This document shows, one piece after another, positions 6,010 through 64,000 of a stretch of 64,000 nucleotides of DNA. Origin of the DNA: Paludibacteraceae bacterium (GTDB taxonomy: Bacteria; Bacteroidota; Bacteroidia; Bacteroidales; Paludibacteraceae); NCBI GenBank assembly GCA_017551025.1, contig JAFZNG010000021.1, positions 12,908 to 76,907 of the forward strand, given 5' to 3'. The translations under genes and the position numbers were made by a program. How positions within the stretch are numbered: the first letter of the stretch is position 1; every line of letters begins with the position of its first letter. The notes beneath the pieces were generated by a model that did not search any database, was not told where the DNA came from, and saw only the letters and a list, made by a program, of their open reading frames with translations.

Positions 6010-7104
6010 ATGAAAAAGTTTTTTAGTTTGCTGTCAATGGTATTCGTAGCCGTTGCCATGATGGCACAACAGCCTAAGATTACGTTCGAGAAGACCGAAC
6101 ACGACTTTGGTAAGATCAACGAGGCAGACGGCCGCGTGACGACCATCTTCAACTTCCGCAACGAGGGTATGGCTCCGCTCGTACTGAGCAACGTACGTGC
6201 CAGCTGCGGTTGTACCACCCCCAACTGGACCCGTGAACCCATCAACCCGGGCGAGACAGGCCAGATCACGGTAACCTACAACCCCAACGGACGTCCCGGT
6301 CGTTTCCAGAAGACCATTACCGTCACCTCCAACGCCGAGGAAGCCAGCGTAAAACTCTATATCAAGGGCGAAGTGATACCGAAGCCCGCACAGCCCGCTC
6401 CGGACAGCTACCCCGTGAAGATGGGTGGACTGAGCCTCAAGGCCGACAACGTGAACTTCGGTACGATCAAGAAAGGCCAGTCGGCTACCAAGGAAATCGA
6501 GTATGCCAACAAGACCGACAAAGATATTACCGTAGCCATGTTGCTGCCCGGTAAAGGCGTGGACGGACAAGTCACTCTGGAAGTTGTAAAACCCAACCAG
6601 ACCGGTAAACTCGTCATCCTGTTCGACAGCAAGCAGTCGAAACTGTACGGCCCGAACGAACTGCCTATCTACCTCATCATCAACGGTAAGAAGCAGACCA
6701 CCAACGAATTCCGCATCAATGTCAAGGCTGAGGTAGTAGAGGACTTTACGAAGCTGACCACCGCCGAGAAGCAGAATGCCCCGATCATCGAGATCCAGGG
6801 TGCTATCGACTTCGGTACGGTAGCAGCCGGCAAGAAAGGACTGAAGAAGAGCATCCAGTTCGGCAACAACAATGCCAACCCGCTCATCATCCGTCGTATC
6901 TACAACGCCAACCCAACTCTGCTGAGTTGCACGGCAACCGGTACGGTAAAGGCTAATAAGAAAGGCGTGCTGACCGTGGCACTCAACACCATCCAGGACG
7001 GCAAGCCCATGCCTGCCGGACAATACAGCCGCCAGATCACGCTCTATACCAACGACCCGCAACGCTCCAAGGTGAACATCACCGTGAAGTGGACGGTGAA
7101 ATAG
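6010..7104 (+). CDS. DUF1573-family secreted protein
   Basis: Signal peptide, then the DUF1573 hallmark DFGKI...FRNEG..PLVLSNVRASCGCTTP. Confidence 0.75.
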   Translation: MKKFFSLLSMVFVAVAMMAQQPKITFEKTEHDFGKINEADGRVTTIFNFRNEGMAPLVLSNVRASCGCTTPNWTREPINPGETGQITVTYNPNGRPGRFQKTITVTSNAEEASVKLYIKGEVIPKPAQPAPDSYPVKMGGLSLKADNVNFGTIKKGQSATKEIEYANKTDKDITVAMLLPGKGVDGQVTLEVVKPNQTGKLVILFDSKQSKLYGPNELPIYLIINGKKQTTNEFRINVKAEVVEDFTKLTTAEKQNAPIIEIQGAIDFGTVAAGKKGLKKSIQFGNNNANPLIIRRIYNANPTLLSCTATGTVKANKKGVLTVALNTIQDGKPMPAGQYSRQITLYTNDPQRSKVNITVKWTVK

Positions 7105-7153
7105 GGTGTAGGGTGTAGAGTGTAGAGTGTAGAGTGTAGAGTGTAAAGTGTAA
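7104..7153. repeat. Tandem heptamer GRGTGTA, about 7 copies, intergenic
   Basis: gggtgta gggtgta gagtgta x4 aagtgta, between the DUF1573 stop and the meaB start. Confidence 0.95.
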
Positions 7154-7158
7154 AAAGT

Positions 7159-8256
7159 ATGCAGCATCCGGAAAATGACTCGAAATACAAGGGACTGACG
7201 GTCAACCAGGGCGTGGAGAACCTGCCCTCCGTCAATCCGTATGCCACGTTCCGTCGTAAGAAGACCGTGCTGAGCCCCGAAGCTTACTTCGAGGGCATCC
7301 GCCGTGGCGACATGACGATACTGAGTCAGGCTGTCACGCTCGTAGAGAGCAACCTGCTGGCCGACCAGGCCATCGCGCAGAAAGTAATCGAGATGTGCCT
7401 GCCCTATGCGGGCCAGTCGATACGTCTGGGCGTGACAGGCGTACCGGGTGCCGGCAAATCCACTTTCATCGAAGCGCTCGGCACCGAACTGTGCCGGATG
7501 GGTAAACGACTCGCCGTACTGGCTATCGATCCCTCGTCGGAGCGCTCGAAAGGTTCGATCCTGGGTGACAAGACCCGCATGAACGAACTCTCGGCCGAGC
7601 ATAACGCCTTCATACGCCCCAGTCCATCGGCAGGAAGCCTGGGAGGCGTAGCGCGTAAGACACGCGAGACCATCGTGCTCTGCGAAGCAGCCGGATTCGA
7701 TACAATCATGGTAGAAACTGTCGGCGTAGGCCAGTCGGAAACGGCGGCGCAGTCGATGGTAGATTACTTCCTGCTGCTCCAGGTTACCGGTACGGGTGAC
7801 GAACTGCAAGGCATCAAGCGCGGCATCATGGAGATGTGCGACGGCATCGCTATCAACAAGGCGGATGGTAATAATATAGAACGCGCGCGCGCTGCGCGAG
7901 TAAGTTTCAAGAACGCCTTGGCTCTTTTCCCGCCTGCTGCATCGGGCTGGCAAGCACAGGCGCTATGCTGTTCGTCGATCGACCACTCGGGTGTGCTCGA
8001 CGTATGGGAGAACGTACTGGATTATATCGCGTTCACCAAGCGTAACGGCTACTTTGAGCAGAAACGTACCGAGCAGGCTAAGTACTGGATGTACGAGACT
8101 GTCAACCAGGCACTACTGGACGGATTTTATAAAAACGAAACCATGGAGGCGCTGATTGCTCAGGCTGAGCAACAGGTTCTCCGCAACGAGATAAGCAGCT
8201 TTATTGCTGCCCACAACCTACTGACCGAATATGGCCGAAATCAAAAACAACAGTAA
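7159..8256 (+). CDS. meaB: Methylmalonyl-CoA mutase-associated GTPase MeaB / ArgK family
   Basis: P-loop GVTGVPGAGKSTFIEALG, then DPSS..SKGSILGDKTRM and INKADG. Confidence 0.85.
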   Translation: MQHPENDSKYKGLTVNQGVENLPSVNPYATFRRKKTVLSPEAYFEGIRRGDMTILSQAVTLVESNLLADQAIAQKVIEMCLPYAGQSIRLGVTGVPGAGKSTFIEALGTELCRMGKRLAVLAIDPSSERSKGSILGDKTRMNELSAEHNAFIRPSPSAGSLGGVARKTRETIVLCEAAGFDTIMVETVGVGQSETAAQSMVDYFLLLQVTGTGDELQGIKRGIMEMCDGIAINKADGNNIERARAARVSFKNALALFPPAASGWQAQALCCSSIDHSGVLDVWENVLDYIAFTKRNGYFEQKRTEQAKYWMYETVNQALLDGFYKNETMEALIAQAEQQVLRNEISSFIAAHNLLTEYGRNQKQQ

Positions 8257-9787
8257 ACGTAAAACCACTACTACCGTCATCAAGGTAGGCACTAACGAGA
8301 TGGGCAAACTGCCCCCGCAGGCACCGGAACTGGAAGACTCGGTGCTGGGAGCACTCATGATTGAGAAAGACGCCTACATGACGGTAGCCGACCTGCTGCG
8401 TCCGGAGTCGTTCTACAAAGATCAGAACCGGCATATCTACGAAGCTATCCGTGCGCTGGCCGTCAAGGAGCAACCTGTCGATATCCTCTCCGTAGCCGAG
8501 AAACTGAAGAGTCTGGGCACCCTGGAGGAAGCCGGTGGCGTGAGTTACCTAAGTGAACTCACACGCCGCGTCGCCTCGACAGCCCACCTCCACTACCATG
8601 CCCAGATCGTTGCCCAGAAAGCGACGGCACGCGAACTCATCGCTATGGCAGCCCAGGTAGAAGAAGCCGCCTACGATGATACCCAGGACGTAGATGAACT
8701 GCTCCAGAAAGCCGAAGCAGGTGTATTCGAGATATCCCAGCGTTCGCAGAAACGCGACGTAACCCAGATAGACCCCGTCATCACCGAGGCCCTCTCGCGT
8801 ATGTCCAAAGCAGCCCTCAACGAGGGTAATATCTCCGGCGTACCGTCCGGTTTTACCGCCCTGGACAAGATTACGAGCGGATGGCAGAAATCCGACCTCG
8901 TCATCATCGCCGCTCGTCCGGCGATGGGTAAGACGGCCTTCGTGCTGTCGATGGCGAAGAATATCGCCGTCAACCTCAAGCGTCCGGTAGCGATGTTCTC
9001 GCTCGAGATGAGCAACGTACAGCTCGTCAACCGTCTGATTATGAACGTCTGCGAACTGGAGGGTGATAAGATTAAGACCGGTAAGTTCACCAAGGAGGAA
9101 CGCAAGCGACTGGACACCAAGATCAACGACCTGTATAACGTACCGCTCTATATCGACGATACGCCTTCGTTGTCGGTCTTCGAACTCCGCTCCAAGGCTC
9201 GTAAACTAAAGCAAGAGCACCATATCGAACTGCTCATCATCGACTACCTGCAGCTCATGAACGCACAGGGTATGCAGTTCGGTTCGCGTGAGCAGGAGGT
9301 GTCGATCATCTCGCGTAACCTCAAGGGACTGGCCAAAGAGCTGGATATACCGATTATCGCCCTCTCGCAGTTGAACCGTGGCGTAGAAGCCCGTACGGGT
9401 GTAGAAGGCAAGACCCCGCAACTCAGCGACTTGCGTGAGTCGGGTGCCATCGAGCAGGATGCCGATATGGTATGCTTTATCCACCGTCCGGAGTACTACC
9501 ACCTCTATAACGACGAGAAGACCGGTAAGGACCTGCGTGGTCTGGGTCAGATCATCGTAGCCAAGCATCGTAACGGTGCGACCGACTCCGTATGGCTCCG
9601 CTTCCTGGGTAAATACGCTAAGTTCCAGAATGAGAACGACGCCTACGATCAGGACGACCTGCCGCCGATGCCGGCTCAAGAACCGCAAGACCTCGACCAG
9701 CGTACGGCCTGGACGGGCAGTTCGGCTATGAACCAGATGTCGCCCGACGGCGCACGTATCGACGACCCGCAAGAGGCACCGTTCTAA
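8231..9787 (+). CDS. dnaB: Replicative DNA helicase DnaB
   Basis: PPQAPELEDSVLGALM, Walker A ARPAMGKTAF, and LSDLRESGAIEQDAD. It overlaps the meaB end by 26 nt; an alternative in-frame ATG is at 8300. Confidence 0.9.
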   Translation: MAEIKNNSKRKTTTTVIKVGTNEMGKLPPQAPELEDSVLGALMIEKDAYMTVADLLRPESFYKDQNRHIYEAIRALAVKEQPVDILSVAEKLKSLGTLEEAGGVSYLSELTRRVASTAHLHYHAQIVAQKATARELIAMAAQVEEAAYDDTQDVDELLQKAEAGVFEISQRSQKRDVTQIDPVITEALSRMSKAALNEGNISGVPSGFTALDKITSGWQKSDLVIIAARPAMGKTAFVLSMAKNIAVNLKRPVAMFSLEMSNVQLVNRLIMNVCELEGDKIKTGKFTKEERKRLDTKINDLYNVPLYIDDTPSLSVFELRSKARKLKQEHHIELLIIDYLQLMNAQGMQFGSREQEVSIISRNLKGLAKELDIPIIALSQLNRGVEARTGVEGKTPQLSDLRESGAIEQDADMVCFIHRPEYYHLYNDEKTGKDLRGLGQIIVAKHRNGATDSVWLRFLGKYAKFQNENDAYDQDDLPPMPAQEPQDLDQRTAWTGSSAMNQMSPDGARIDDPQEAPF

Positions 9788-9829
9788 AGCAAAAACCAAT
9801 AAGCAAGAAAACAATAAAACACAATATAC

Positions 9830-11259: not shown

Positions 11260-14200
11260 ATGAAAAAACTACTGACAATGCTGCTGGGCCTCGGACTGAC
11301 ACTATCAGCCCTGGCACAGACATCGTTGCGAGGACAGGTAGTTGATGCCGGTACCGGTGAACCTATCCAGGGTGCTAAGGTGCTGCTCGGCAACCAGAAC
11401 ATCGCAACCACCACCAACGCTGCCGGCGAGTTTCAACTGCTCTACCTCGACGCCATGGACGAAGAGGTGATCATCGAAGCCGAAGGCTACGTAGGTACTA
11501 TCGAACTCGTGCTCCTGGAGGACAACCAAGCCGTCAAGATGGAGGCTGTCAAGCTCCAACAGGACATCGCCAAGCAAACCCAGGATGAGATTCTGCTCAA
11601 CCTGACCGAAGAGGAGATGAACGACGACGAGGGACGTTCTCAGGCACAAGCCAGTGCCAGTTCGGCCACGGTGGACGTATTCAACTCGACCACCTCTTTT
11701 GCCTGGTCTACAGCACGTTACCGCAACCGCGGCTACAACTCCACGGCCGAGACCTACTATATCGAAGGTCTGCCGTTCAACTCGGCGGAGCGTGGCCAGT
11801 TCAACTACTCGGCTATGGGTGGTCTGAACGACGCCAGCCGCTACAAGGAAGTGCTCAACCCGATGGAGGCCACGAGTTTCAGCTTCGGCGGACTGGGTCA
11901 GGCTACCAACTACATGATGGGTGCCAGCCGTTTTGCCCAGGGATGGAAAGTAGGTGCTGCCGGAACCAACCGTAACTACAAGGCACGTATCAACGCTACC
12001 TACGCTTCCGGAACGCTGAGCAACGGATGGTCGTTTATCGGTCAGTTGGCTTACCGCTTCTCGCCGTATGTTGACCAGAAGGGCATCATCGGAGAGGGTA
12101 TCAAGTACTACTCGCTGGGTTACTTCTTCTCGGCTGAGAAACAGTGGCAGAACGGCAACCGCCTGCGCCTGATCACCTTCGGTGCACCTACCGAGCGTGG
12201 CCAGAACGGTGCGGTAACGCAGGAAGTATATGACCTGACCGGTTCGATCTACTACAACCCCTACTGGGGCTATCAGAACGGCAAGGTGCGCAACTCGCGT
12301 ATCGTCAAGGCTTACGACCCGACGGCTATTGCTGCCTTTGACCTGAAGATAGACGAACAGCAGAAGATGAAGTTCGCCGTAGGATACCACTACTCGATGT
12401 ATTCCAATTCGGCGCTCAACTACTTCAACGCACCCGATCCGCGTCCGGACTACTACCGCAACCTGCCGAGTGCGATGTGGGACGGCCAGATCGCCAACCC
12501 GTATAACGAGACTTCGGCTGCTCAGATGTACCGCCCGGACGGTTCGCCTTACGGCTACGGACTGTTTATCGGTCAGGACATGAACGGCACGTACCTGGGT
12601 GCTGCCCAGACGGCTGCCGACGGCAACCTGGTAGGACCGAGCGTAGATATCAACCAGTATAACGCGCTGGTTAATCTCTGGCAGAACCGCGACAACAAGA
12701 CCACCCAGATCGATTGGGAGAGCCTCTATGCCGCCAACTACGCCAACAATGCCAACGACCCGAACGCTTCTGCACGCTACTTCATCGAGCGTCGTCATAA
12801 CGACATCCAGGAGGTTTCGGCCGTAGTTAACTACCAGAATACCAAGTTCGACCACCTGAAGATGACCGCCGGACTGGAGGGTCGCTTCTCTCAGGGTATC
12901 CACTACAAGACCGTAGAGGACCTGCTCGGTGGTAACCAGTGGATCGATATCGACGCTTTTGCCGATCGTGATATCAAGGAGCTGGCTACCAACAGCGGTT
13001 TCACGCAGGAGGATATCAAACTCATTCGCCAGAATGAGACCCGCGACGGCTACGAACTCAATAAGAAAGACGGTGACCGTTTCGGTTATGACTACCGCAT
13101 CAATATGGGTAACCTGAAGGCATGGTTCCAGAACGAGTGGACCTTCCACGAGGTGGACCTATACTACGCCCTGCAACTCAACTTCAACTCGATGCAGCGT
13201 ACGACCAACATGCTGAACGGTCGTGCATGGTATCTGACCAAGATTGCCGATGAGAAGATGGCTGCCGACGCTACCCGTTACTACGGCGCTAACGCCTACG
13301 CACAGATCAAGGCCGCTGAGGCTGCCGGTACGCTCCAGGCAGGAACGACCTACGCAGGTGATGCCCACTACTTCCTCGACCCGGCCTTCAAACTGGGTCT
13401 GACGTACAAGATCAACGGTCGCAACCGACTGAAAGTAAACGCGCTCGCACAGACCAACGCACCGTACGCGCGTGATGCTTATATCTCGCAACGCGTACAC
13501 GATCGCGTGGTAGAGAATATCTACCGTCACGACCAGGCCAAGTCGCTGGCCGACTTCTATGCCGCCAGCGAGAAGGTGGCTGCTGCCGACCTTACGTATG
13601 AGTTCAACTATCCGATCGTTCGCGGTCGTGTAACGGGATTCTTCACCCAGACCTGGAACGGCACGGAGCTGAACGGCTACTACGACGATGAGGCTCGTAC
13701 CTTCGTCAACCAGGCACTGAGCGGTATCGACAAGCGCTATATGGGTGTAGAAGCCGCCGTATCCGTAAAACTCGGTACGTACTTCACCCTGACCGGTGCA
13801 GCCAGCGTAGGCGACTACCGCTATACCAGCGATGCTCAGTCTGTTACCTCGGCCGAGAACGGTATGCCGATGACCCAGGATCAAGGTACTCAGGAGCTCG
13901 TCTTCGAGACCCAGGATCGCGTACTGCTCAAGGGCGTTAAGCTGTCCACCGGTCCGCAGGCGAATGCCAGCCTGAAACTCGGCTTCTTCCACCCGAAGAT
14001 GTGGTTTGCCGACATTACCGTCAGCTACCATGACTGGAACTACCTGTCGGTAGCTCCGAGCCGCCGTATGCAGGGCCTGTACACCGGTACACGTACCGAC
14101 GGTACGGCTGTCAACGGATGGTTTGGCGACAAGAATGCCAACGCTATCGAGACCACCGACGGTCAGCTGCTGCGCGTGAGCATGGATGCCGACGGCAATC

Positions 14201-16318: not shown

Positions 16319-16691
16319 TAGGCTTGCTACGGCCGGAACGGTCGTACGGCAGTCGTCGTGGTTTTATTCCGAGCCTTGGGGTTTTCAATCCGAACATGCG
16401 TTTTGCAACTGCTGTGTACAGCTTGAGACCGAGTTGTCGCCTTTGGAGTTGCTCGACCTGACGCAGGATATCGAGCGCGAACTGGGCAGAAGAAAAAAAA
16501 CGGAAATCTCAAATCTCAAATCTCAAATCAGAAATTACTCCGACAGGAGTATTGATATCGATCTTATCAGCGCGTATGATGCTAAGGGGCAGGAGATCAT
16601 CATTTCTTCCGACCGGCTTACCCTTCCCCACCCGCTTTGGCGGGAAAGAGATTTTGTCCGCGTCCCGCTGGCGCAGATACAAAAGAAGTGA
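16251..16691 (+). CDS. folK: 2-amino-4-hydroxy-6-hydroxymethyldihydropteridine diphosphokinase (HPPK)
   Basis: MTVYLSLGANLGNREQTI..., WGFQSEHAFCNC and LTLPHPLWRERDFVRVPLAQI. The ATG at 16251 is preferred to the track start at 16158. It overlaps the cvpA end by 68 nt. Confidence 0.85.
   Translation: MTVYLSLGANLGNREQTIQTAIDRLATAGTVVRQSSWFYSEPWGFQSEHAFCNCCVQLETELSPLELLDLTQDIERELGRRKKTEISNLKSQIRNYSDRSIDIDLISAYDAKGQEIIISSDRLTLPHPLWRERDFVRVPLAQIQKK
16504..16538. repeat. Tandem heptamer AAATCTC (3 exact + 2 degenerate copies) inside folK
   Basis: aaatctc aaatctc aaatctc aaatcag aaattac, translated as EISNLKSQIRNY. Confidence 0.95.
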
Positions 16692-16716
16692 CTCAGGTGA
16701 GCCACTTCTTTTTTCT
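16684..16716. terminator. Bidirectional hairpin terminator between folK and the convergent 126-aa gene
   Basis: AGAAGTG-loop-CACTTCT followed by TTTTTTCTTT. Confidence 0.6.
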
Positions 16717-17097
16717 TTAGCCGTTCTGGGCGTCGTACGCGTCTCCACAAACTTTCCAGAGATAGGCGCGGAGGGTTTTCTTACCACCGGCAAGATCCTT
16801 CTGGGCCTCGAAGGCTTCGCGATCAGTTGCGATCGTCGAGAGGTTCTTCATACGGGTGTTGACAGCCGCCTGTACAGCGGTGAAGCGGGTGCGAGCTGCG
16901 AGCTCGTTCTGGGTGGGCTCGGTCGAACGCTCTACCAGATCACGCATGTAAACACGCGTACAATTCGGGTTAGAGGTTGCAGCCTTGCGGTGCGTGCCAA
17001 GCAGCATCTTCTCGTGCTTGTGCTGACCGTCTTTCTTCGGTTTCGACAATGCGCCGGATACATAATCGATACCGGCACTCCATTTTACAATTGCCAT
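16717..17097 (-). CDS. Hypothetical protein (126 aa)
   Basis: Intact ORF MAIVKWSAGIDYVSGALSKPKKDG... that looks protein-like. No family was recognised. Confidence 0.5.
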   Translation of the reverse strand: MAIVKWSAGIDYVSGALSKPKKDGQHKHEKMLLGTHRKAATSNPNCTRVYMRDLVERSTEPTQNELAARTRFTAVQAAVNTRMKNLSTIATDREAFEAQKDLAGGKKTLRAYLWKVCGDAYDAQNG

Positions 17098-17187
17098 AGT
17101 TCACTTCGTTTTTAAAGGGTTCATTACTTGGGGCATAGCCCCGTTACCGACTCTTTCTTTATCCACGAGAGCCGTTTGCGTGGTTGC

Positions 17188-17394
17188 TCACCTGTTGTCC
17201 TTCTTGCCCTTGTACTGTTCTTGGGTTTTGGTCCAGATGCAGGCGACCGAGTCACCTCTTGTCTCGTACGTGGCGGTCGTCGTGTAGGTCCGTACCGCGG
17301 TGCAACTCTCCATGCCGAGTGCTATCGCTACGCAGGTCACTACCGCCGTCGCCATCGTTACGACAATCTTGTAAATCTTCTGCTTTTCCATCAT
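17188..17394 (-). CDS. Small membrane protein or lipoprotein (68 aa)
   Basis: A hydrophobic N-terminal segment ends in ...ALGMESC. It has its own -7 box (TAatTTTG, reverse strand, about 17462-17469). Confidence 0.45.
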   Translation of the reverse strand: MMEKQKIYKIVVTMATAVVTCVAIALGMESCTAVRTYTTTATYETRGDSVACIWTKTQEQYKGKKDNR

Positions 17395-17407
17395 TCGTAA
17401 TTTTGCA

Positions 17408-17431
17408 TTTTTAATTTTTAATTTTTAATTT
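17408..17431. repeat. Tandem heptamer TTTTTAA x3
   Basis: tttttaa tttttaa tttttaa, directly upstream of the 68-aa gene. Confidence 0.9.
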
Positions 17432-17500
17432 CTATGATTTTGAGGCGCCTTTCAAAATCGAGTGCAAAATTACTGCTTTTCCCTCATACGCTTCGTCATT

Positions 17501-17550
17501 AAGCCACTTTAAGCCGCAATAAGCCGCAATAAACAACAATAAGCCGCACT
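17501..17550. repeat. Tandem 10-mer AAGCCGCAAT, 5 copies (2 exact)
   Basis: aagccacttt aagccgcaat aagccgcaat aaacaacaat aagccgcact. Confidence 0.9.
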
Positions 17551-17743
17551 ACGGCGGCTCATCGTCTAAAATAATGCAATATTTCTCACAGAGGTATTCT
17601 ACGGCTCTTGGCGGAACCAGTCTCGAACGCGGCAACATGCCGCATGAGGCGAGTTGTTGTCTGTCTTGTTGTAGCCACTTGCGAAACGTGTCGCGTGAGA
17701 CGCCTGCGGCGCGGGCCAATTCACTTTTGAGCATTGCTTGCAT
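17549..17743 (-). CDS. DUF4248-like small helix-turn-helix protein
   Basis: The 64-aa sequence SELARAAGVSRDTFRKWLQQ...LVPPRAVEYLCEKY resembles the Bacteroidales DUF4248 pattern, recalled from memory. Confidence 0.5.
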   Translation of the reverse strand: MQAMLKSELARAAGVSRDTFRKWLQQDRQQLASCGMLPRSRLVPPRAVEYLCEKYCIILDDEPP

Positions 17744-17927
17744 AATCTTGTTTGTTTACGTTAGTAATTAGTTCTGTGAGCCCTTCGACGGCGGCATCGA
17801 TGGATGTGCCGGGGCGGAGGTAAAGATGGATCTGACCGTTGGCGGAACGGCGAAGGTACATGCCGCGTTGGCGGAAAGCGCGTCGAGCGGCGCAGAAATC
17901 AAAAGAGGGGTTGGTAGTTAGTAGCAT
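17721..17927 (-). CDS. Hypothetical protein (68 aa)
   Basis: ORF overlapping the downstream DUF4248-like gene start by 23 nt. It is protein-like (RGMYLRRSANGQIHLYLRPGTSIDAAVEGL). Confidence 0.35.
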   Translation of the reverse strand: MLLTTNPSFDFCAARRAFRQRGMYLRRSANGQIHLYLRPGTSIDAAVEGLTELITNVNKQDYASNAQK

Positions 17928-17930
17928 TTT

Positions 17931-17966
17931 GACAGGTAATTGATAGGTAATTGACAGGTAATTGAC
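17931..17966. repeat. Tandem 11-mer GACAGGTAATT x3
   Basis: gacaggtaatt gataggtaatt gacaggtaatt, abutting the ATG of the 68-aa ORF. Confidence 0.9.
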
Positions 17967-17999
17967 CCGATGAAACCTCGCGTATGTACGTGCGGAGCT

Positions 18000-18053
18000 C
18001 TAGACACCCTAGATACCCTAGACCGCTGCGCTGCTCTAGACAACCTAGATATC
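18000..18053. repeat. Tandem 9-mer CTAGAYANC, 5 copies plus one degenerate unit
   Basis: ctagacacc ctagatacc ctagaccgc (tgcgctgct) ctagacaac ctagatatc. Confidence 0.85.
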
Positions 18054-18212
18054 TTCGAGGTACTGCTCGAAGGGGTAGTCTTCGGGGGACCAGCCGTTGA
18101 TTGCGCATACCTCTTGGTAGGTGGCGCGTTCGGCTTCCATGGCGTCGAGGTAGGCATCCCAGCGGGCGTCGGAGAGGAGGTCTTGTAAATAATCTTCGTC
18201 ATACGTGTTCAT
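18045..18212 (-). CDS. Hypothetical acidic protein (55 aa), below the ORF-track size cutoff
   Basis: My translation is MNTYDEDYLQDLLSDARWDAYLDAMEAERATYQEVCAINGWSPEDYPFEQYLEDI. Its ATG overlaps the stop of the upstream 109-aa ORF by 14 nt. Confidence 0.4.
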   Translation of the reverse strand: MNTYDEDYLQDLLSDARWDAYLDAMEAERATYQEVCAINGWSPEDYPFEQYLEDI

Positions 18213-18528
18213 AATAGACATTTCCTGTTTCGGGTTTGATCATGCGCCAGCCGTCTTGTTCTACGGTGGTGTCGAAGCGAGCGTAGTAGTCGCGGAAGGA
18301 GAGTCGTTGCGGCGGGCGTTGTTGCCGCTGCCGGGCATTATCTTCGATAGCGAAATAGGGATTCTCGTTGACGAATTCGCCTCGCCTAAGTTTGCCATCG
18401 ATAATCGAATAAATTTCTTCTTGCCTAGCCTCGCCATAGCCTTGCCATAACCGTTCACATGCGCCTCGCCGCCGTTTGAACTCACCTTGCGGGTTTAGCA
18501 GTTGCCAAATGTCTAAGAAAGTTTTCAT
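18199..18528 (-). CDS. Hypothetical protein (109 aa)
   Basis: Intact ORF MKTFLDIWQLLNPQGEFKRRRGACERLWQGYGE... No family was recognised. Confidence 0.5.
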   Translation of the reverse strand: MKTFLDIWQLLNPQGEFKRRRGACERLWQGYGEARQEEIYSIIDGKLRRGEFVNENPYFAIEDNARQRQQRPPQRLSFRDYYARFDTTVEQDGWRMIKPETGNVYYEHV

Positions 18529-18616
18529 AAAATTAAATTCGCCTTGCCAAGCCAGGCCTTTTTCTTTGCATTGTCATGACAATTTATTGGCATGGCAAGG
18601 CAAGGCTTTTTCTTTT

Positions 18617-19054
18617 TTAATTTTTCTTTGCTTCTTTCTTTTTATTAGCTTTCTTTTTGTCCAGATTCTGGACAGATTTACGGGTCACATGGAGGATGTA
18701 GTAGGGTTTCGCTGCATCGGGATACTTCTTGCAGATGATCTTCTCCAGCTTGTAGATATCGCGATTGACGGTCGAGAGTTTTTCCGCCAGATTGGTCTTG
18801 CGCCTCAGCTTAGCCTCCAGTTGCCTCACCAGTCGTTGGTTCGTCACCTCGGTGAGTTCCACGGTATAGCGGGTCGTCACGCTGAATATGCCGCCCTTGT
18901 GTGCAAACTCTGTCCCGTCGTGGAATCTTTCGGGATAATTCTCTCGGATAAAGCACACGGCCTCCTGACGCTGCTCTGCGAGCTTCGTCTTCATAATGTC
19001 CATTGCGAATGTCGTCTTACGCACTTGTTGCAGTGCATCTAATGTTGTTGCCAT
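18617..19054 (-). CDS. Hypothetical protein with a Lys-rich C-terminal tail (145 aa from the ATG at 19054)
   Basis: MATTLDALQQVRK...KKKANKKKEAKKN. The track start at 19084 is a GTG inside an upstream direct repeat. Confidence 0.5.
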   Translation of the reverse strand: MATTLDALQQVRKTTFAMDIMKTKLAEQRQEAVCFIRENYPERFHDGTEFAHKGGIFSVTTRYTVELTEVTNQRLVRQLEAKLRRKTNLAEKLSTVNRDIYKLEKIICKKYPDAAKPYYILHVTRKSVQNLDKKKANKKKEAKKN

Positions 19055-19067
19055 AATTAAATAACGA

Positions 19068-19120
19068 TTTAACGTGCGTAGCACCTGTTTAACAATTTAA
19101 CAGTTTAACGTGCGTAGCAC
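19068..19120. repeat. 17-bp direct repeat TTTAACGTGCGTAGCAC x2 (19068-19084 and 19104-19120)
   Basis: Two exact copies 36 bp apart, just upstream of the 19054 start. The 14-bp palindrome GGCTACCGGTAGCC follows at about 19134-19147. Confidence 0.85.
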
Positions 19121-19218
19121 TGATTAATAATTATGGCTACCGGTAGCCTTGTTAGCTTGAATTCGGGTGCAAAGGTAGCGGTTTTTGCGGAATTGGGCAA
19201 CCCGCAATTGCGGGTCAA

Positions 19219-19437
19219 CTACGTATGTTCCTGATTCATAAACTCTAACGCTCTTTGAACTTTGCTCTTGCTTGTACGCAAATCACCTGCAATTTGCACC
19301 TGAGAAAGTTCTGGAAAAAGTAAATGGTATTCATAGATCTCTTTCCAGGACAGTAGATGCGGTGATACACCATACGGATACCATTCTTTGAGTTCGCCGG
19401 ACTCGATTTTGGCGCAAAGAAATTCATAACGTGTCAT
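19219..19437 (-). CDS. Small putative HTH DNA-binding protein (72 aa)
   Basis: HTH-like segment SQVQIAGDLRTSKSKVQRAL. It has its own promoter (TAtcTTTG on the reverse strand, about 19470-19480). The 16-bp palindrome ACCCGCAATTGCGGGT lies just after the stop. Confidence 0.5.
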   Translation of the reverse strand: MTRYEFLCAKIESGELKEWYPYGVSPHLLSWKEIYEYHLLFPELSQVQIAGDLRTSKSKVQRALEFMNQEHT

Positions 19438-19571
19438 CTTTATACTCCATTTTAGGGAATGTTAATCTAAAATGAAGACAAAGATACATCTATTCTTCCG
19501 ATCGGCAAAGGGGATTGATTAGCCCCATTTAGTCAAAAAATAAAGAATTTTTGCATTTTTTTGCTCAATTT

Positions 19572-19603
19572 CTTGCGTATGTCAAAAAAAAACTGTACTT
19601 TTG
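19572..19603 (+). promoter_or_regulatory. -33/-7 promoter with no obvious gene behind it
   Basis: cTTGcg-N19-TActTTTGcagcg. Confidence 0.55.
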
Positions 19604-19609
19604 CAGCGC

Positions 19610-19910
19610 AAAACGCAAAGTTTTGCAGTATTTCAGTCCACGCTGGGGAGGTGTCCTTACTTAAGTGGGCGGGAATACGGACATATTGAAAACGGCGTCT
19701 TTAGCGCTTTGTTTTGGCTATCTGGAATCTGGTAAATTCACAACTAATCCAAAACATTGCAGCACAAGATGCCCATGGTATGTATTAAACAAGGTACGTA
19801 CATACGTACACGTATACATACGGCGTGGGCTCCAGTGTTGTTGTTTGGATTAAAGGCAATACCAGAGCCTCAGATAGCGGAACAGCAAGATTGCAGTCCC
19901 GCTTTTTTAT
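19610..19910 (+). ncRNA. Candidate non-coding transcript, about 300 nt, class unknown
   Basis: The segment runs from a consensus promoter to a weak hairpin plus T6 (19876-19908). Internal pairings include GCAAAAC/GTTTTGC and GTATGTAT/ATACATAC. The only ORFs look implausible (62 and 79 aa in the track, with non-ATG starts). Confidence 0.3.
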
Positions 19911-20062
19911 TTGTTATATGCGGGAATTCAATCAAAGACGTACAAAGAGTGATCTTTGAAATATTGGATTACCGTAAAAAAGAAATTGTTGGCTAATTTT
20001 TGGTAATTGTTGACCGAAAAACAAGAAAATTCGCTTAATTCGGTTAATTTGTGAACGAAAAT

Positions 20063-20094
20063 CTTGCATATGTCGAAAAATTGTTGTACCTTTG
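20063..20094 (+). promoter_or_regulatory. -33/-7 promoter for the 44-aa ORF + GNAT pair
   Basis: cTTGca-N18-TAccTTTGcagcgacaaagg. CCTTTG/CAAAGG form an inverted repeat at the predicted start site. Confidence 0.6.
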
Positions 20095-20131
20095 CAGCGA
20101 CAAAGGTAAATAAACAGCAAAATTTTAGACT

Positions 20132-20266
20132 ATGTTTGGTGTAAGATCTTCAAATCAGCCCATTAGCGGACAGTTCGCAGAAGATTTCGTGCGGAATCTT
20201 CTCGAGGCTCAAAAGCAACCTAAACAAGAGGTAAGAAAAATGACGCATAATATTGTAATTGATTAA
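20132..20266 (+). CDS. 44-aa ORF translationally coupled to the GNAT gene; possible antitoxin
   Basis: My translation is MFGVRSSNQPISGQFAEDFVRNLLEAQKQPKQEVRKMTHNIVID. Its stop overlaps the GNAT start as TAATG. Confidence 0.35.
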   Translation: MFGVRSSNQPISGQFAEDFVRNLLEAQKQPKQEVRKMTHNIVID

Positions 20267-20814: not shown

Positions 20815-20840
20815 GTTATTTTGTCTTAATCTACACCAAA

Positions 20841-20874
20841 AGCGGTAATCCAATAGCGGGTTACCGCTTTTTTG
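20841..20874 (+). terminator. Rho-independent terminator after the GNAT gene
   Basis: AGCGGTAA-loop-TTACCGCT followed by TTTTTT. Confidence 0.75.
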
Positions 20875-20930
20875 TCGTGAAAAACAAACCAATTAATTAA
20901 CCATATTTATTAACCAAAATTTTTTATTGT

Positions 20931-24506: not shown

Positions 24507-24509
24507 GAA

Positions 24510-24656
24510 ATGAAGATGATGAGTAAAAAATCATACCTGATTCCGGAGACAGAAACCCTGTCTCTGGAATCTATGGGTGCCCTTATGATCTCGGGTGATG
24601 CACAGAACTCTCCTACAACCCCCGGACCGTTCACCGCACCTCAAAAGGTATTCTGA
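24510..24656 (+). CDS. Micro-ORF (48 aa), paralogous to 25721..25849
   Basis: My translation is MKMMSKKSYLIPETETLSLESMGALMISGDAQNSPTTPGPFTAPQKVF. It starts 3 nt after the upstream stop. Confidence 0.4.
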   Translation: MKMMSKKSYLIPETETLSLESMGALMISGDAQNSPTTPGPFTAPQKVF

Positions 24657-52795: not shown

Positions 52796-53353
52796 TATTT
52801 GTTTATATTCCGTTTCGCTTATCTGTTCGGCTTCATAAGCATCATAGGCCGTAGGAAGCATAGCTACCTGTACCGTCAATCGCTGGTACCATCGTTGCCA
52901 CTCCGCATCAAATTTGCCCAGGAGGAATGCAACATCTTTTCGCGCCGCATATAATGTCTGCAACGAATCCCGCATTCGTTCGCCGCAGGCTTGCATCTCT
53001 GCCAGCCTACATTCCGCCGGTTCGCGAAAACGCACCGCATCAATCTTCTGCTGCCAGTGATAGCAGGTCTGCTCGGCCAGCCGACACAATTGTCTGCACA
53101 GCACGTCTTTATCCATAGGCACTTCCGTTGTCGAGTCCGTTTGCGCCGGCGAAACCACGACCGTAGTATCACCCGGCACAACGGTCGTCTCGGACGACGA
53201 CTGGACAACTACAACCTGACGCTGAAGATCCAGCGTAGCCGAATGACGGGTAATACGTCCGCGATGCTCCAGGTAGTACTCACCGCCAAGCGCAAGCGCC
53301 ATCAGCACCAACGCACCCACAACAATGGCAATATAACGTCCGTTTTCTTCCAT
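52775..53353 (-). CDS. Single-pass membrane protein, unknown function
   Basis: TM segment YIAIVVGALVLMALALGG, a T/V/S-rich spacer and a Cys-containing helical domain. The start is the ATG at 53353 or at 53365. Confidence 0.5.
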   Translation of the reverse strand: MEENGRYIAIVVGALVLMALALGGEYYLEHRGRITRHSATLDLQRQVVVVQSSSETTVVPGDTTVVVSPAQTDSTTEVPMDKDVLCRQLCRLAEQTCYHWQQKIDAVRFREPAECRLAEMQACGERMRDSLQTLYAARKDVAFLLGKFDAEWQRWYQRLTVQVAMLPTAYDAYEAEQISETEYKQIQKESTH

Positions 53354-53408
53354 TTTCGGGCACAAAATTACAACATTTTTTGCAAATTTGCAATTTTATT
53401 TGCATAAT

Positions 53409-53440
53409 TCAAGAAAAAAGTGTAATTTTGCGCGAATTTT
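53409..53440 (+). promoter_or_regulatory. -33/-7 promoter for the MMPL gene
   Basis: TTTGCAtaattcaagaaaaaagtgTAATTTTG. A divergent reverse-strand -7 box lies at about 53371-53378. Confidence 0.55.
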
Positions 53441-53455
53441 TGTGTACACACACGT

Positions 53456-61095: not shown

Positions 61096-62275
61096 TGTAG
61101 GCTTCCAGGGCTTTACGTAACACGATCATGGCTTTGGCCAGGTCTTCCTTTTTGAGCACATAAGCCATGCGAACCTGATGACGACCGTCTTCGGGGTTGG
61201 TGTAGAAACCCGTACCGGGTGCCATCATGACGGTAGCTCCCTCATAGACAAAGTCCGTCAGACACCACTTGCAGAATTTCTCCGTATCATCTACCGGCAG
61301 TTCTACCATCACGTAGAACGCACCCGTCGGTGCCGGGGCAAAGACACCCGGAATCTGGTTCAACTGGTCGATCAGGAAATTACGACGACTCAGGTACTCA
61401 TCATATACCTCCTGCAAGTATTCTTCGGGCGTAGAGAGCGAAGCCTCTGCGATCACCTGACCGAACAACGGAGGACTTAGGCGCGCCTGGCAGAATTTCA
61501 TCACCGACTCGCGCACCGCTTTGTTCTTGGTAATCAACGCACCGATACGTATGCCGCACTCCGAATAACGCTTCGAGACGCTATCCACCAGAATGACGTT
61601 TTGCTCAATACCTTCCAGGTGGCAGGCCGAGATATAGGGCGACTTGGTATAGATAAACTCACGATACACCTCGTCCGAGATGAGGTACAGGTCGTATTTC
61701 TTCACCAGGTCGCGTATCTGACGCATCTCCTGCTTGGTGTACAGATAGCCGGTCGGGTTGTTGGGGTTGCAGATCAGAATCGCACGCGTCTTGGGCGTGA
61801 TCTGCTTCTCAAATTCCTCTACCGGAGGCAACTTAAAGCCATTCTTGATATCCGTCTTTACGGATTTCACTACCGCACCTGCCGAGATAGCAAACGCCAT
61901 ATAGTTGGCGTAACTGGGGTCGGTCACAATGATCTCATCCCCCGGATTCAGACACGACATATAGGCAAACATGATCGCCTCCGAACCACCTGCGGTGATG
62001 ATAATCTCATCGGGCGAGAGGTCAATACCGTAGTCGGCATAGTAACTCACCATCTTGGTACGCAGCGACTTCAGTCCCTGACTAGGTGAGTACGCGAGGA
62101 TATCCTCACTATACTGACGCACCGCCTCCATGGCCTGGGGCGGTGTTTTGATATCGGGCTGACCGATATTCAGGTGATATACGTGTGTGCCGGCCAACTT
62201 AGCGGCATCGGCATACTTAGCCAGTTTGCGAATCGGGCTCTGGGGCATCGATTGCGCGCGTAAACTAATCTCCAT
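61085..62275 (-). CDS. PLP-dependent aminotransferase, class I/II (aspartate/aromatic type)
   Basis: IRKLAKYA..., NPNNPTG, and the PLP-lysine block SVSKRYSECGIRIG. Confidence 0.85.
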   Translation of the reverse strand: MEISLRAQSMPQSPIRKLAKYADAAKLAGTHVYHLNIGQPDIKTPPQAMEAVRQYSEDILAYSPSQGLKSLRTKMVSYYADYGIDLSPDEIIITAGGSEAIMFAYMSCLNPGDEIIVTDPSYANYMAFAISAGAVVKSVKTDIKNGFKLPPVEEFEKQITPKTRAILICNPNNPTGYLYTKQEMRQIRDLVKKYDLYLISDEVYREFIYTKSPYISACHLEGIEQNVILVDSVSKRYSECGIRIGALITKNKAVRESVMKFCQARLSPPLFGQVIAEASLSTPEEYLQEVYDEYLSRRNFLIDQLNQIPGVFAPAPTGAFYVMVELPVDDTEKFCKWCLTDFVYEGATVMMAPGTGFYTNPEDGRHQVRMAYVLKKEDLAKAMIVLRKALEAYNAK

Positions 62276-62298
62276 ATCGTGTGTTTTTTTGGTTTCTC

Positions 62299-64000
62299 TT
62301 ATTCTACTGTCACCGACTTGGCCAGGTTGCGCGGTTGGTCTACATCACAACCCTTGACCACGGCAATATGATAGGCCATCAGCTGGAGCGGGATGACGGT
62401 CAATAGCGGCGTTAGGCACTCTTCCGTCTCCGGCACCTCGATCACGTAGTCCGCTATCTTGCGCACTAGTTCATCGCCCTCCGTCACCACGGCGATTACC
62501 CGACCCTTGCGGGCCTTGATCTCCTGGATATTCGAGACCACTTTCTCGTACGTACCGCAGCGCGGCGCCACTACTACTACCGGCATCTCCTGCGAGATCA
62601 AGGCAATCGGTCCGTGCTTCATCTCCGCAGCCGGATACCCCTCGGCATGGATGTACGAGATCTCTTTTAGTTTCAAGGCTCCCTCCATCGCTACGGGATA
62701 GTTGTATCCGCGTCCCAGATAGATGAAATTCTGGGCATATGTAAAGGTCTTGGCGAAATCCTGGATGCGTTTGTTCTGCTCCAGTACGCGCTCTATTTTC
62801 TGCGGTATCTGTCCCAATTCACGCACTACGCTCAGATACTGTTCCTCGCTCATCGTGCCCTTCTCGCGTCCAATGCAGAGTGCCAACATCGTCAGGGCCG
62901 TCACTTGTGCCGTGAATGCTTTCGTACTGGCCACACCAATCTCCGGACCTACGTGGGTATAGCAACCGCTATCGCTTACGCGCGGAATCGACGCACCTAC
63001 CACGTTGCATATCGAGAAGATAAACGCTCCTTTCTGTTTGGCCAGCTGGATAGCAGCCAGCGTGTCGGCGGTCTCGCCACTCTGCGAGATAGCAATGACC
63101 ACGTCGTCTTTATTGATCACAGGTTTACGGTAGCGGAACTCACTCGAATACTCCACCTCAACCGGTATCTGAGCAAACTCCTCGATGGCATACATCGCTA
63201 TCAGACCGGCATGCCAACTCGTGCCGCAGGCCGTGATGATGATACGCTTGGCGTTCAAGAAGCGCTCCTTGTTATCGATAAATCCAGACAGCGCGATATT
63301 GTCCTGACGCACGTTGACACGACCACGCATCGAGTCGGCCAGCGTACGCGGTTGCTCAAAGATCTCCTTGAGCATGAAATGCGGATAACCGCCTTTCTCC
63401 AGTTGGCTCAACGAAAGCTCCAGTCGCTTGATCTCGGGAGTTTTCTGAACGTTGTTAATCGTCGTAATATCTATGGAACTTTCAACTTTCAACTCTCCAA
63501 CTTCTTTCAACTCTAAACTCTCAACTCTCAACTTCAAGGAGACCACTTCTTCATCCTCGATATAAATCACCTTGTCGGTATACTCAACGATCGGCGTAGC
63601 GTCCGAAGCCAGGAAGTATTCGTCCTCACCGATGCCCACAACGAGCGGACTACCTTTTCTTGCGGCAATCAAGGTATCGGGGTTATCCTTATCCAGTACG
63701 ACGATAGCATACGCGCCAATCACCTGCTGCAGTGCCAGTTGTACGGCCGTCTTCAGGTCTACATGACGGTTGACCTGGGTATATTCGATCAGTTGCACCA
63801 GCACCTCGGTGTCGGTGTCCGACTTGAAGGTATAGCCCTCTTGCATCAATCCGGCTTTCAGCACCGCATAGTTCTCGATGATACCGTTATGAATGATAGC
63901 CAGCCGCTCCGATTCCGAGTAATGGGGATGAGCATTCTGGGTATTGGGTTCTCCGTGCGTAGCCCAACGGGTATGTGCAATACCTATCGTGCCGTCGATA
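62299..64000 (-). CDS. glmS: Glutamine--fructose-6-phosphate aminotransferase; N-terminus lies beyond the window end
   Basis: Two SIS domains (GTSWHAG, SQSGETADT) and the C-terminus PRNLAKSVTVE. Upstream of the track's GTG start, the same frame continues to the window edge with IGIAHTRWATHGEP...HPH. Confidence 0.92.
   Translation of the reverse strand, partial: IDGTIGIAHTRWATHGEPNTQNAHPHYSESERLAIIHNGIIENYAVLKAGLMQEGYTFKSDTDTEVLVQLIEYTQVNRHVDLKTAVQLALQQVIGAYAIVVLDKDNPDTLIAARKGSPLVVGIGEDEYFLASDATPIVEYTDKVIYIEDEEVVSLKLRVESLELKEVGELKVESSIDITTINNVQKTPEIKRLELSLSQLEKGGYPHFMLKEIFEQPRTLADSMRGRVNVRQDNIALSGFIDNKERFLNAKRIIITACGTSWHAGLIAMYAIEEFAQIPVEVEYSSEFRYRKPVINKDDVVIAISQSGETADTLAAIQLAKQKGAFIFSICNVVGASIPRVSDSGCYTHVGPEIGVASTKAFTAQVTALTMLALCIGREKGTMSEEQYLSVVRELGQIPQKIERVLEQNKRIQDFAKTFTYAQNFIYLGRGYNYPVAMEGALKLKEISYIHAEGYPAAEMKHGPIALISQEMPVVVVAPRCGTYEKVVSNIQEIKARKGRVIAVVTEGDELVRKIADYVIEVPETEECLTPLLTVIPLQLMAYHIAVVKGCDVDQPRNLAKSVTVE
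63477..63537. repeat. Tandem heptamers AACTTTC/AACTCTC, about 8 copies, inside glmS
   Basis: Encodes LKLRVESLELKEVGELKVESS in the inter-domain region. It is the reverse complement of the GAGTTGA/CGAAAGT families at 32.3-32.5 kb. Confidence 0.9.

Follow-up and report, generated by a model that had tools for sequence, protein, structure and literature searches.

Why do short tandem repeats with a 7-nucleotide unit, which is not compatible with codons, recur at unlinked places of one bacterial chromosome, often inside intact genes for core enzymes? The question is raised by a stretch of 64,000 nucleotides (nt) from a Paludibacteraceae bacterium (GenBank assembly GCA_017551025.1, contig JAFZNG010000021.1, positions 12,908–76,907), here called the window. 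An earlier note on this DNA had listed such arrays and proposed an active insertion or templating process. The arrays are "long simple sequence repeats" (LSSRs) of the 5–11-nt class, with 7-nt units dominant, and the habit of carrying heptamer arrays is common to the Paludibacteraceae, a family of uncultured Bacteroidales probably from the ruminant gut.

Tandem arrays were called with Tandem Repeats Finder (TRF), and the chance expectation was obtained by shuffling inside 2-kb blocks with the dinucleotide content kept. The window contains 52 TRF rows, including 16 of period 7 (shuffles: mean 9.5, maximum 17). At a score of at least 45 there are 26 rows in the window versus 0.43 in the shuffles, and 12 rows of period 7 versus 0. 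The identical pipeline finds four weak arrays in 50 kb of Escherichia coli K-12, none of period 7 and all with 2.8 copies or fewer. The excess of tandem arrays in the window is confirmed as real. Array periods are 7, 8, 9, 10 and 11 nt, with 2–8 copies, and at least eight different units are used in the window alone.

All arrays named in the earlier note, from 7102–7152 through 63477–63534, were recovered by TRF, and the comparison with shuffled controls that it had proposed gives the enrichment described above. Its recurring sequence families are real, as measured by pairwise comparison of four pairs. The arrays at 7105–7134 and 33052–33081 are 97% identical and share a pattern of G/A variants. 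The second variable site of an ABC ATPase gene (32297–32359) and glmS (63477–63539) share 57–63 nt that are 89% identical once one of them is reverse-complemented. Complementarity is 97% between the AATTTTT arrays at 17407–17435 and 38113–38141, and the nonamer arrays at 34691–34725 and 38718–38752 are 86% complementary. The link within the CTTTCGA/CTTTCAA family is looser than was claimed, the units being one mismatch apart. Hepta-, octa- and nonamer arrays are located in open reading frames (ORFs) that stay open through them: folK, fic, the ABC ATPase gene (three arrays), a murF/alr fusion (two arrays), a HAD hydrolase gene and glmS. These gene identities were confirmed by NCBIfam and the quoted peptides hold as well, but the in-gene arrays number nine, or ten with the array at 12732, not eight.

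The closest database proteins are from metagenome-assembled genomes (MAGs) named "Paludibacteraceae bacterium", and the GlmS of the window is MBR6017970.1. Judging from the sample labels, the source samples are probably ruminant gastrointestinal metagenomes. Two other assemblies of the same strain (L006 and L007) align with the window over 20.6 and 13.0 kb at 99.99% identity, and their arrays are identical. Disappearance of the arrays from independent assemblies, a possibility raised along with the original observation, is thus not seen. Five assemblies (L001–L005) of a strain with ~96.5% identity contain arrays of like kind.

The scan was extended to relatives with one genome per species, covering ~65 MAGs of Paludibacteraceae or uncultured Bacteroidales, together with Prevotella and Hallella. 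In most Paludibacteraceae loci there are 3–10 arrays per 10 kb, mainly of period 7, compared with ~1–2 in those of cultured Prevotella and Hallella. In total, 492 arrays are seen in 74 Paludibacteraceae loci (1.25 Mb), corresponding to 3.9 per 10 kb. Among arrays clearly beyond chance length, period 7 is far more frequent than periods 11, 8 and 9. The units are diverse: 107 canonical heptamer units are found in 230 arrays, and the median copy number is 4.4. The phenomenon is not peculiar to this genome but is family-wide and extends to some rumen Prevotella MAGs.

Four of these Prevotella MAGs (L079, L080, L084 and L088) contain 4.4-copy heptamer arrays as well as AATGGTC arrays of 17–19 copies, and in L080 TCTCACC is repeated 4.4 times within an ABC ATPase gene. 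Loci of cultured Prevotella and Hallella do not have this pattern. Of the unit families in the clade, CTTTCGA is the most frequent, represented in the window by the array at 32493–32522. Four or more copies of TCGAAAG, the commonest unit of the clade, have exact matches in 32 IMG/VR viral contigs (L100–L131), versus 0–2 for control heptamers. These contigs belong mostly to one related phage group with ~44% GC and have a single array of 5–12 copies. In the one contig examined (L101), the array directly follows a stop codon.

Reading frame, stop codons and hot spots

The gene model for the 74 loci is scored by codon usage and is approximate. This model places 244 of the 492 arrays (50%) within predicted genes, while coding sequence makes up 88.8% of the DNA. 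The density is ~2.2 arrays per 10 kb in coding DNA versus ~18 in non-coding DNA, a difference of about 8-fold. Arrays between convergent or divergent genes occur roughly in proportion to the available gaps. Arrays inside genes are spread along the gene length and are not confined to the 5' part.

If only arrays with 1+3k units, or with a length divisible by 3, persist in ORFs, length classes of ~30 and 51–58 nt are expected inside genes. The in-gene arrays of period 7 show a sharp mode at 29–31 nt (66 of 276) and a second cluster at 51–58 nt, with nearly none at 40–50 nt. Arrays outside genes are broadly distributed in length. Wherever strains differ in the length of an in-gene array, the difference is divisible by 3 (+9, +15, +27, +36 and +45 nt). 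The original argument that a 7-nt unit must be constrained by the reading frame is borne out by these lengths.

In the sense direction, units with a stop codon (GGTGTAG, TTAACGG and AAATTAA) are restricted to the ends of genes or positions beyond them; inside genes they run antisense. For the arrays at 7102, 31754, 38117, 38710 and 44091, the upstream stop codon is inside the array or abuts it. The array at 31754–31784 provides stop codons to both convergent genes, thrS (+) and the ABC ATPase gene (−). The strong arrays outside genes fill stop-to-start gaps nearly exactly. In the peptides that arrays encode, S, Q, N, H, K, T and P are over-represented and W, A, M, D, G and F under-represented. 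Reading frame, the presence of stop codons and position all act as filters on the arrays.

Alignments of orthologues of the ABC ATPase, GlmS and MurF/Alr agree with the earlier suggestion that the peptides are lineage-specific and placed at loops or linkers. ABC ATPase orthologues, 241–289 aa long, agree at 70–80% identity outside three sites, one following GY, one following GEY and one lying between QVGF and FN.HSDGEKQR. Each site contains a lineage-specific, visibly repeat-derived peptide or none, and the native loops are overwritten, not merely lengthened. Variants at the first site include SRKSKVESRK and NRKSNIENRK. In an AlphaFold model of low confidence (pLDDT 57.6), to be read qualitatively, the three sites correspond to a beta-hairpin turn and two coils. 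The gene (31782–32576, −) starts with GTG in the window strain. It is called as 219 aa in one assembly (L006:10001–10660) versus 264 aa in others, and the shorter call drops the conserved N-terminus along with the first array.

GlmS orthologues are 619–647 aa long with 92–95% identity, and have one main hypervariable site occupied by a group-specific repeat peptide. In E. coli GlmS, the counterpart of this site is the poorly conserved hairpin at residues ~215–233, together with the linker that precedes the isomerase domain. MurF/Alr orthologues from 60 species are 584–707 aa long, with many rare insertion sites and few common ones. One site (33949–33980 in the window) is occupied in 40 of the 60 orthologues, while the site of LYTLHSTPYT is occupied in 13. 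The MurF-like/alanine racemase fusion of the window (32548–34416, −) has 622 aa versus 822 positions in NCBIfam PRK11930. It is without ~200 residues of the C-terminal part of the Mur ligase, and all 60 orthologues are similarly short.

Copying between loci and its explanation

The arrays shared by the ABC ATPase gene and glmS are composite. Both have four units of the GAGTTGA type, then a 3-nt phase shift, and then AAGTTGG/AGAGTTG/AAAGTTG. An exact search of Joint Genome Institute (JGI) metagenomes for the irregular composite junction found three contigs, none of them with the junction in a glmS or ABC gene. In one contig the composite is inside a RimO/MiaB-like gene and encodes KLKVESLKLKEVGELKVDS, nearly the peptide of GlmS. 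In another it is inside a PrmC/HemK gene, just ahead of the NPPY motif. In the third (L097, 5604–5776) a 33-nt higher-order repeat with 5.3 copies and 89% identity is located between aminotransferase and transporter genes. Altogether, the ~60-nt composite is found in five contexts, four genes and one intergenic region, in both orientations. The presence of such a composite, with its shared irregularity, in unrelated genes indicates that arrays are also copied between loci. The higher-order repeat of L097 consists of AAGTTGA heptamers and AAGAAGTTGGGGG, and the neighbouring aminotransferase-like gene contains an in-frame GTCGAAA array of 13 copies.

Unit sharing points in the same direction. 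Pairs of arrays at different sites of the same genome have an identical unit in 4.1% of cases versus 1.4% between genomes (permutation p<0.001), and both values are far above the ~0.1% for random heptamers. Compared with two other species, the glmS array of the window has three periodic A-to-G differences that match its own ABC array, which might hint at ectopic conversion. Of the process proposed in the earlier note in place of local slippage, the recurrence between loci is supported, while an enzyme-driven mechanism is judged unlikely.

Changes between strains are of two kinds. Among strains at 98.0–99.8% identity no array differs and no array indels are seen; the copy-number variation that had been thought worth checking is absent in this range. 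Since arrays are static at 98% identity or above, they are not phase-variable, and phase variation is rejected. At 96.5% identity (window versus L001), four of ten shared arrays are changed. L001 has two nonamers fewer at 38740 and a unit changed in every copy at 38118. Its HAD gene has an additional 45 nt including (CTACACC) x4, with undiverged flanks. In its murF/alr gene the array is completely swapped, and the flanks are 23–25% diverged versus a background of 3.3%.

A similar swap is seen in glmS of L136, a near-identical strain, whose GlmS protein differs from that of the window solely in the cassette. At the DNA level this corresponds to a tract of ~150 nt resembling another species, with flanks 15–22% diverged versus 1.4% elsewhere. 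The swaps in murF/alr (L001) and glmS (L136) are short homologous-recombination imports of foreign alleles. De novo replacement as the origin of all cassette swaps between close strains fails for these two cases, given their diverged flanks. For the HAD gain and for the changes at 38740 and 38118, the flanks diverge to the background level, and the swap at the second ABC site in L008 has identical flanks; these four are genuine local or ectopic events. An array difference upstream of thrS in L010 adjoins diverged sequence and thus is no proof of recent insertion. At the murF/alr hot spot (33052–33081), at least four alleles are found across strains 91–97% identical, and one scaffold (L002) breaks there, with a run of N. 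Because short tracts of homologous recombination shuffle alleles, cassettes appear to be abruptly replaced. The glmS genes of the window and L136, otherwise ~99% identical, also show 3–5 substitutions within 4–21 nt at columns 927–930, 1521–1542 and 1981–1987. Such clusters may be additional patches, from very short recombination or of the microindel type.

On balance, we favour the view that a heptamer-dominated LSSR habit of this lineage represents near-neutral or selfish microsatellite DNA, shaped by ectopic copying and selective filtering and having no dedicated function. Replication slippage would duplicate and expand short units. Arrays would then be copied elsewhere in either orientation, or overwrite one another. 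The pattern of this step is observed; its likely route could be microhomology-mediated template switching, ectopic single-strand annealing at the replication fork like that of SPDIR (short-patch double illegitimate recombination), or ectopic gene conversion. Selection purges harmful copies, as the filtering described above shows. Survivors occupy the spacers of operons and the ends of genes, the latter with units whose TAA, TAG or TGA gives the stop codon. Inside genes, the arrays that survive are stop-free and frame-preserving, and encode polar peptides at loops, hairpins and linkers, which gives rise to persistent hot spots. Once established, an array is stable at the strain level, and hot-spot alleles are exchanged among lineages via homologous-recombination tracts of ~150 nt, as seen in glmS.

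Several points weigh against this view. The sample is limited, with 64 kb of this genome and ~20 kb of each relative. A family with 16–18-nt (sometimes 23-nt) units, GGTCTnnCAGCGAAGC, containing the motif GCGAAGC, is present in sister strains and more than 15 species, and is conserved beyond the expectation for neutral satellites. It is in frame, with peptides like GLTAKRS, at hot spots that heptamers also use. A mild length mode of ~30 nt is also seen outside genes, where the frame argument does not apply, and PMC4692102 describes a four-unit preference of unrelated heptamers in Xanthomonas and Nostoc; some length-setting mechanism may thus be missing. Inside an essential gene, slippage from one 7-mer to four passes through out-of-frame states, so that multi-unit events or the import of ready-made arrays would be needed for in-gene arrays to originate. 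Microhomologies at junctions (CCTTG and ATA shared at the two composite junctions, TATACC/TACACC at the HAD site) come from few events and are only anecdotal.

Loci of the GGTCTnnCAGCGAAGC family, whose element can also be written GGTCT..CAGCGAAGC, include L008:1342–1412, L001:9460–9500, L011, L014, L017, L018, L020, L023, L036 and L076, and in L003 a 36-nt insertion is nested inside the element. The family is missing from the arrays of the window and from viral contigs, and so is the element in the form GGTCTTTCAGCGCAGCGGTCT; a protein database search with the doubled peptide of the element gave no match at E<=10.

The GGTCTnnCAGCGAAGC family at heptamer hot spots and the nested insertion in L003 would also suit a dedicated mobile system, in which cassettes of ~30–60 nt are non-autonomous elements written or transposed by a trans-acting enzyme. 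The enzyme could be a reverse transcriptase, a primase-polymerase, an integrase or an HUH-type protein preferring existing arrays or particular sites. The 60-nt composite in at least five unrelated contexts and both orientations, the recurrence of unit families within genomes, the ~30-nt mode even outside genes and the one clean +45-nt event in the HAD gene with undiverged flanks can be read in the same way. However, no transposase, reverse transcriptase or integrase is present among the NCBIfam/Pfam annotations of the window genes. The arrays are direct repeats without palindromy or terminal inverted repeats. No conserved ends were seen. Neither the +45-nt gain in HAD nor the boundaries of the ABC cassettes nor the thrS-upstream difference shows a target-site duplication. 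Single-strand folding of the arrays (0 to −6 kcal/mol) is no better than that of shuffled sequence and gives no hairpins, which rules out a hairpin structure or one like the repetitive extragenic palindromic (REP) elements. Over 100 different heptamers serve as units, no array changes at 98% identity or above, and several "replacements" are plain homologous-recombination tracts. A dedicated mobile system is therefore considered unlikely. The same holds for the broader claim of a new class of ultra-small mobile DNA, namely mini-cassettes of 30–60 nt with neither inverted ends nor target duplications, written or copied into the chromosomes of ruminant-gut Bacteroidales, essential genes included, by an enzymatic or repair activity; we would not expect it to prove correct. 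If it did, the activity would measure out approximately four 7-nt units, and surface loops of core enzymes would be hypervariable allelic cassettes.

Somewhat less probable still is that the arrays are functional cis-elements, the intergenic ones selected as operon spacers or regulator sites and the in-gene ones as flexible linkers. A spacer could stop translation in all three frames and provide a leader that is A/U-rich and unstructured, as would suit Shine-Dalgarno-independent initiation in Bacteroidota. The exact filling of stop-to-start gaps, the provision of stop codons and the position immediately upstream of starts agree with such a role, as do the lack of folding in most arrays, the occupation of sites across species and the place of (TCGAAAG)n just after a stop codon in the viral contig group. 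A translational role has also been proposed for the TAACTGA arrays of Beggiatoaceae (PMC4679880). On the other hand, the unit sequences are highly diverse and freely replaced at one site, and many orthologues have no array at a given site. Placement between convergent or divergent genes roughly follows the available gaps, and the cytoplasmic enzymes that contain in-gene arrays are unrelated and do not all require a linker.

Purely local and independent slippage, with shared units reflecting a mutational or compositional preference instead of copying, is improbable and already disfavoured by the shared composite arrays. The dominance of period 7 regardless of sequence, the in-place changes of copy number (38740) and of all units in concert (38118), and the variants of the first ABC site, which resemble in-place homogenisation, are what local slippage would produce. 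It does not account for 63-nt composites that share the order of variant units and the 3-nt phase shift across unlinked loci, genes and genomes, for the G/A pattern common to 7105–7134 and 33052–33081, or for the higher unit sharing within than between genomes. An assembly or sequencing artefact, for which only the run of N in scaffold L002 could be cited, is rejected with near certainty, since the arrays, which do not reach the length of a sequencing read, agree fully between independent samples and between assemblies from different assemblers, with reading frames kept throughout.

If the pattern is genome-wide, hundreds of microsatellites that do not fit the reading frame are tolerated in core enzymes by an entire family of abundant rumen bacteria. 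This would be a large standing mutational hazard and, at the same time, a natural test of the loops in which arbitrary peptides are tolerated. The pattern would also offer a tractable system for why 7-nt units and approximately four copies dominate the long simple sequence repeats of bacteria, and would bear on the copying of short sequences between unlinked loci without a transposase. The frame-quantised length classes separate selection from mechanism. Practically, hot-spot cassettes are strain markers for metagenomics, while the arrays cause scaffold gaps and start-codon miscalls and inflate the apparent divergence of proteins in MAG catalogues. The finding would surprise workers on bacterial repeats and protein evolution, although the conservative explanation needs no new mechanism.

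Arrays and neighbouring features of the window

Table 1. Tandem arrays of the window, with their units, locations and encoded peptides.
Position	Unit and copies	Location	Peptide or remark
7102–7152	(GGTGTAG/AGTGTAG) x7.3	Fills gap between choice-of-anchor-D protein gene (6010–7104) and meaB (7159–8256)	First TAG is the stop codon of the upstream gene
9785–9821	Degenerate A-rich 7/15-nt array	Gap between dnaB (end 9787) and asnS/aspS-like gene (start 9830)	
12732–12756	(CGCCAACAA) x2.8	CarboxypepD_reg protein gene (1104 aa)	Codon-compatible 9-nt array
16503–16535	(AAATCTC) x3.7	In frame in folK	EISNLKSQI
17398–17431	(TAATTTT) x4.9	Low-GC island; directly upstream of start of small ORF 17188–17394 (−)	
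17510–17548	(TAAGCCGCAA) x3.9	Abuts stop of ORF 17549–17743 (−)	
17929–17966	(TTGACAGGTAA) x3.5	Directly upstream of ORF 17721–17927 (−)	
28486–28540	(CAACCTTA) x6.9	In frame in Fic-domain gene 27654–28718	
31754–31784	(TTAACGG) x4.4	Fills convergent gap of thrS (+) and ABC ATPase gene (−)	
32111–32139	(ATGGTGT) x4.1	ABC ATPase, hot spot 3	TPYTIHHTP; (CCGTCAC)-type array instead in strain L010
32297–32359	Composite: GAGTTGA x4, then AAGTTGG/AAAGTTG units	ABC ATPase, hot spot 2	(GGTCTAACAGCGAAGC) x4 instead in strain L008
32493–32522	(CTTTCGA) x4.3	ABC ATPase, hot spot 1	SRKSKVESRK
33052–33081	(GGTGTAG) x4	murF/alr	LYTLHSTPYT
33949–33980	(ATTTTTA) x4.6	murF/alr	IKNEKLKIQN
34691–34713	(TCGGAGTAT) x2.6	HAD hydrolase gene	IPNNPNTPI
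38117–38156	(AAATTAA) x3.9	Fills gap between lptD stop and slyD-like start	
38710–38766	(AATCCGAAT) x6.3	Last codons and stop of FKBP/slyD-like gene, and gap to der	
44091–44187	(AATTGAA) x4.6 and A-rich 11-nt array	Fills porU–porV gap	
63477–63539	Composite (AACTCTC/AACTTTC) array	glmS	LKLRVESLELKEVGELKVESS; hypervariable hot spot of GlmS orthologues

The neighbourhood consists of ordinary chromosomal genes according to NCBIfam and Pfam. They include relA/spoT, dnaB, a class II tRNA synthetase gene, meaB, folK, thrS and the gene for the ABC ATPase, which is of the FecE/BtuD type. The MurF-like/alanine racemase fusion, a HAD phosphatase gene, lptD, an FKBP isomerase gene, der, porU and porV are also present, together with ispF, aroK, sufE, htrA, genes for a resistance-nodulation-division (RND) pump and TonB receptors, and glmS. 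A search at Rfam gathering thresholds with the window and three loci finds only tRNA-Ser, and no array matches an Rfam family.

The region of approximately 16700–27600 is a variable island with a GC content of 40–45%. It contains small unannotated ORFs, a GNAT gene, an AAA_14 gene and the gene for a 1191-aa secreted protein of the type IX secretion system (T9SS) type, and is rich in 9–11-nt arrays. In strain L001 it is rearranged or only partly alignable. An exact direct repeat of 65 nt (25934–25998 and 27485–27549) flanks the AAA_14 ATPase gene (26051–27241). L001, at 96.5% identity, has one copy of this repeat and no AAA_14 gene, which corresponds to a repeat-bounded indel of ~1.55 kb. The flanks (29280–29640) of tRNA-Ser(GCT) at 29412–29499 (−) are largely unalignable between the window strain and L001.

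A family of ~40 nt, TTTGCA...N...TAcCTTTGC, recurs upstream of genes on both strands, at sites including 1122–1181, 27341–27400, 27615–27669, 29628–29687, 35241–35277, 40115–40171 and 53345–53442. It looks like the Bacteroidota promoter consensus (−33 TTTG / −7 TAnnTTTG) and not like a mobile repeat.

Comparison with known repeat systems

Mrazek et al. (2007; summarised in PMC4679880) reported LSSRs with 5–11-nt units in prokaryotes. In some bacteria, heptamers are the most frequent class of long simple sequence repeats, and an origin by polymerase slippage has been proposed (PMC4679880, PMC4692102). The Paludibacteraceae arrays are also head-to-tail repeats of 5–11-nt units above chance length, with lineage-wide dominance of heptamers (74 loci, 1.25 Mb). 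They further agree with the account in PMC4679880 in their sporadic lineage-wide abundance and in having no tie to virulence. They differ from the LSSRs reported there in the lineage (Paludibacteraceae and some Prevotella MAGs), in being located in genes in half of the cases despite a codon-incompatible unit, in hot spots fixed across orthologues, and in composite arrays dispersed among genes. Full-text literature searches found no paper on such repeats in Paludibacteraceae, and the sole mention of Bacteroidetes concerns a few TAACTGA arrays (PMC4679880).

Comparable heptamer arrays are the short tandemly repeated repetitive (STRR) sequence GGGGA(C/T)T of cyanobacteria, GGGAATC of Xanthomonas, and TAACTGA of Beggiatoaceae, Cyanobacteria and Bacteroidetes (PMC4692102, PMC4679880). 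The TAACTGA arrays overlap stop codons and are occasionally located in ORFs, and two are described from Paludibacter propionicigenes (PMC4679880). Shared features are the 7-nt units, a mode of ~4 units, location at ORF ends and between co-directional genes, and variation of length and sequence between related strains. Like those arrays, the Paludibacteraceae arrays are concentrated outside genes (8-fold density) with a median of 4.4 copies, yet 50% are in genes. The known systems, including GGGNATC, use one or few units and are strongly under-represented in coding sequences, whereas here 107 canonical units are distributed over 230 arrays and in-frame arrays in core enzymes are common. Most Paludibacteraceae arrays are not G-quadruplex (G4)-forming, unlike this group.

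SPDIR produces ectopic patches of 3–100 bp at microhomologies, in either orientation and without target duplication, and is described as a very rare mutation class detected in the laboratory (bioRxiv 10.1101/2023.11.22.568220). The arrays resemble such patches in their size, in occurring in either orientation and in leaving no target duplication, and the composite at the second ABC site and glmS is a patch of this size replaced by sequence found elsewhere in the genome. The route of their spread might be similar.

Phase-variable contingency loci of Haemophilus and Neisseria also have short tandem units in which a change of one unit would shift the frame. Here, in contrast, the hosts are housekeeping genes (folK, glmS, murF/alr and those for the HAD hydrolase and the ABC ATPase) and not surface, virulence or restriction-modification genes, the arrays occur along the gene, copy numbers do not change among close strains at 98% identity or above, and the frame is always kept.

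The Rickettsia palindromic elements (RPEs) of Ogata et al. (2000) are said to be palindromic sequences of 100–150 bp with a family consensus. RPEs and MITEs (miniature transposable elements with inverted repeats) resemble the present arrays as short dispersed DNA placed in frame in conserved genes, with tolerated surface peptides and both orientations; in-frame selfish elements and MITEs are reviewed in PMC10969869. Unlike RPEs, the arrays are direct tandem repeats of 30–60 nt with no palindromy, terminal inverted repeats or target duplications.

The small dispersed repeats (SDRs) of Nostoc, from the work of Elhai et al. (2008), reportedly insert into tandem heptamer arrays and into each other. 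The very small elements (~20–30 nt) seen with heptamer arrays here, and the nesting of 36 nt in L003, are similar. The phylum and the sequences are different, and the central core with imperfect inverted repeats is not evident in Paludibacteraceae. Relative to known heptamer arrays, what is new here is the use of more than 100 units, the in-frame arrays in core enzymes, the family-wide hot spots and the dispersed composites.

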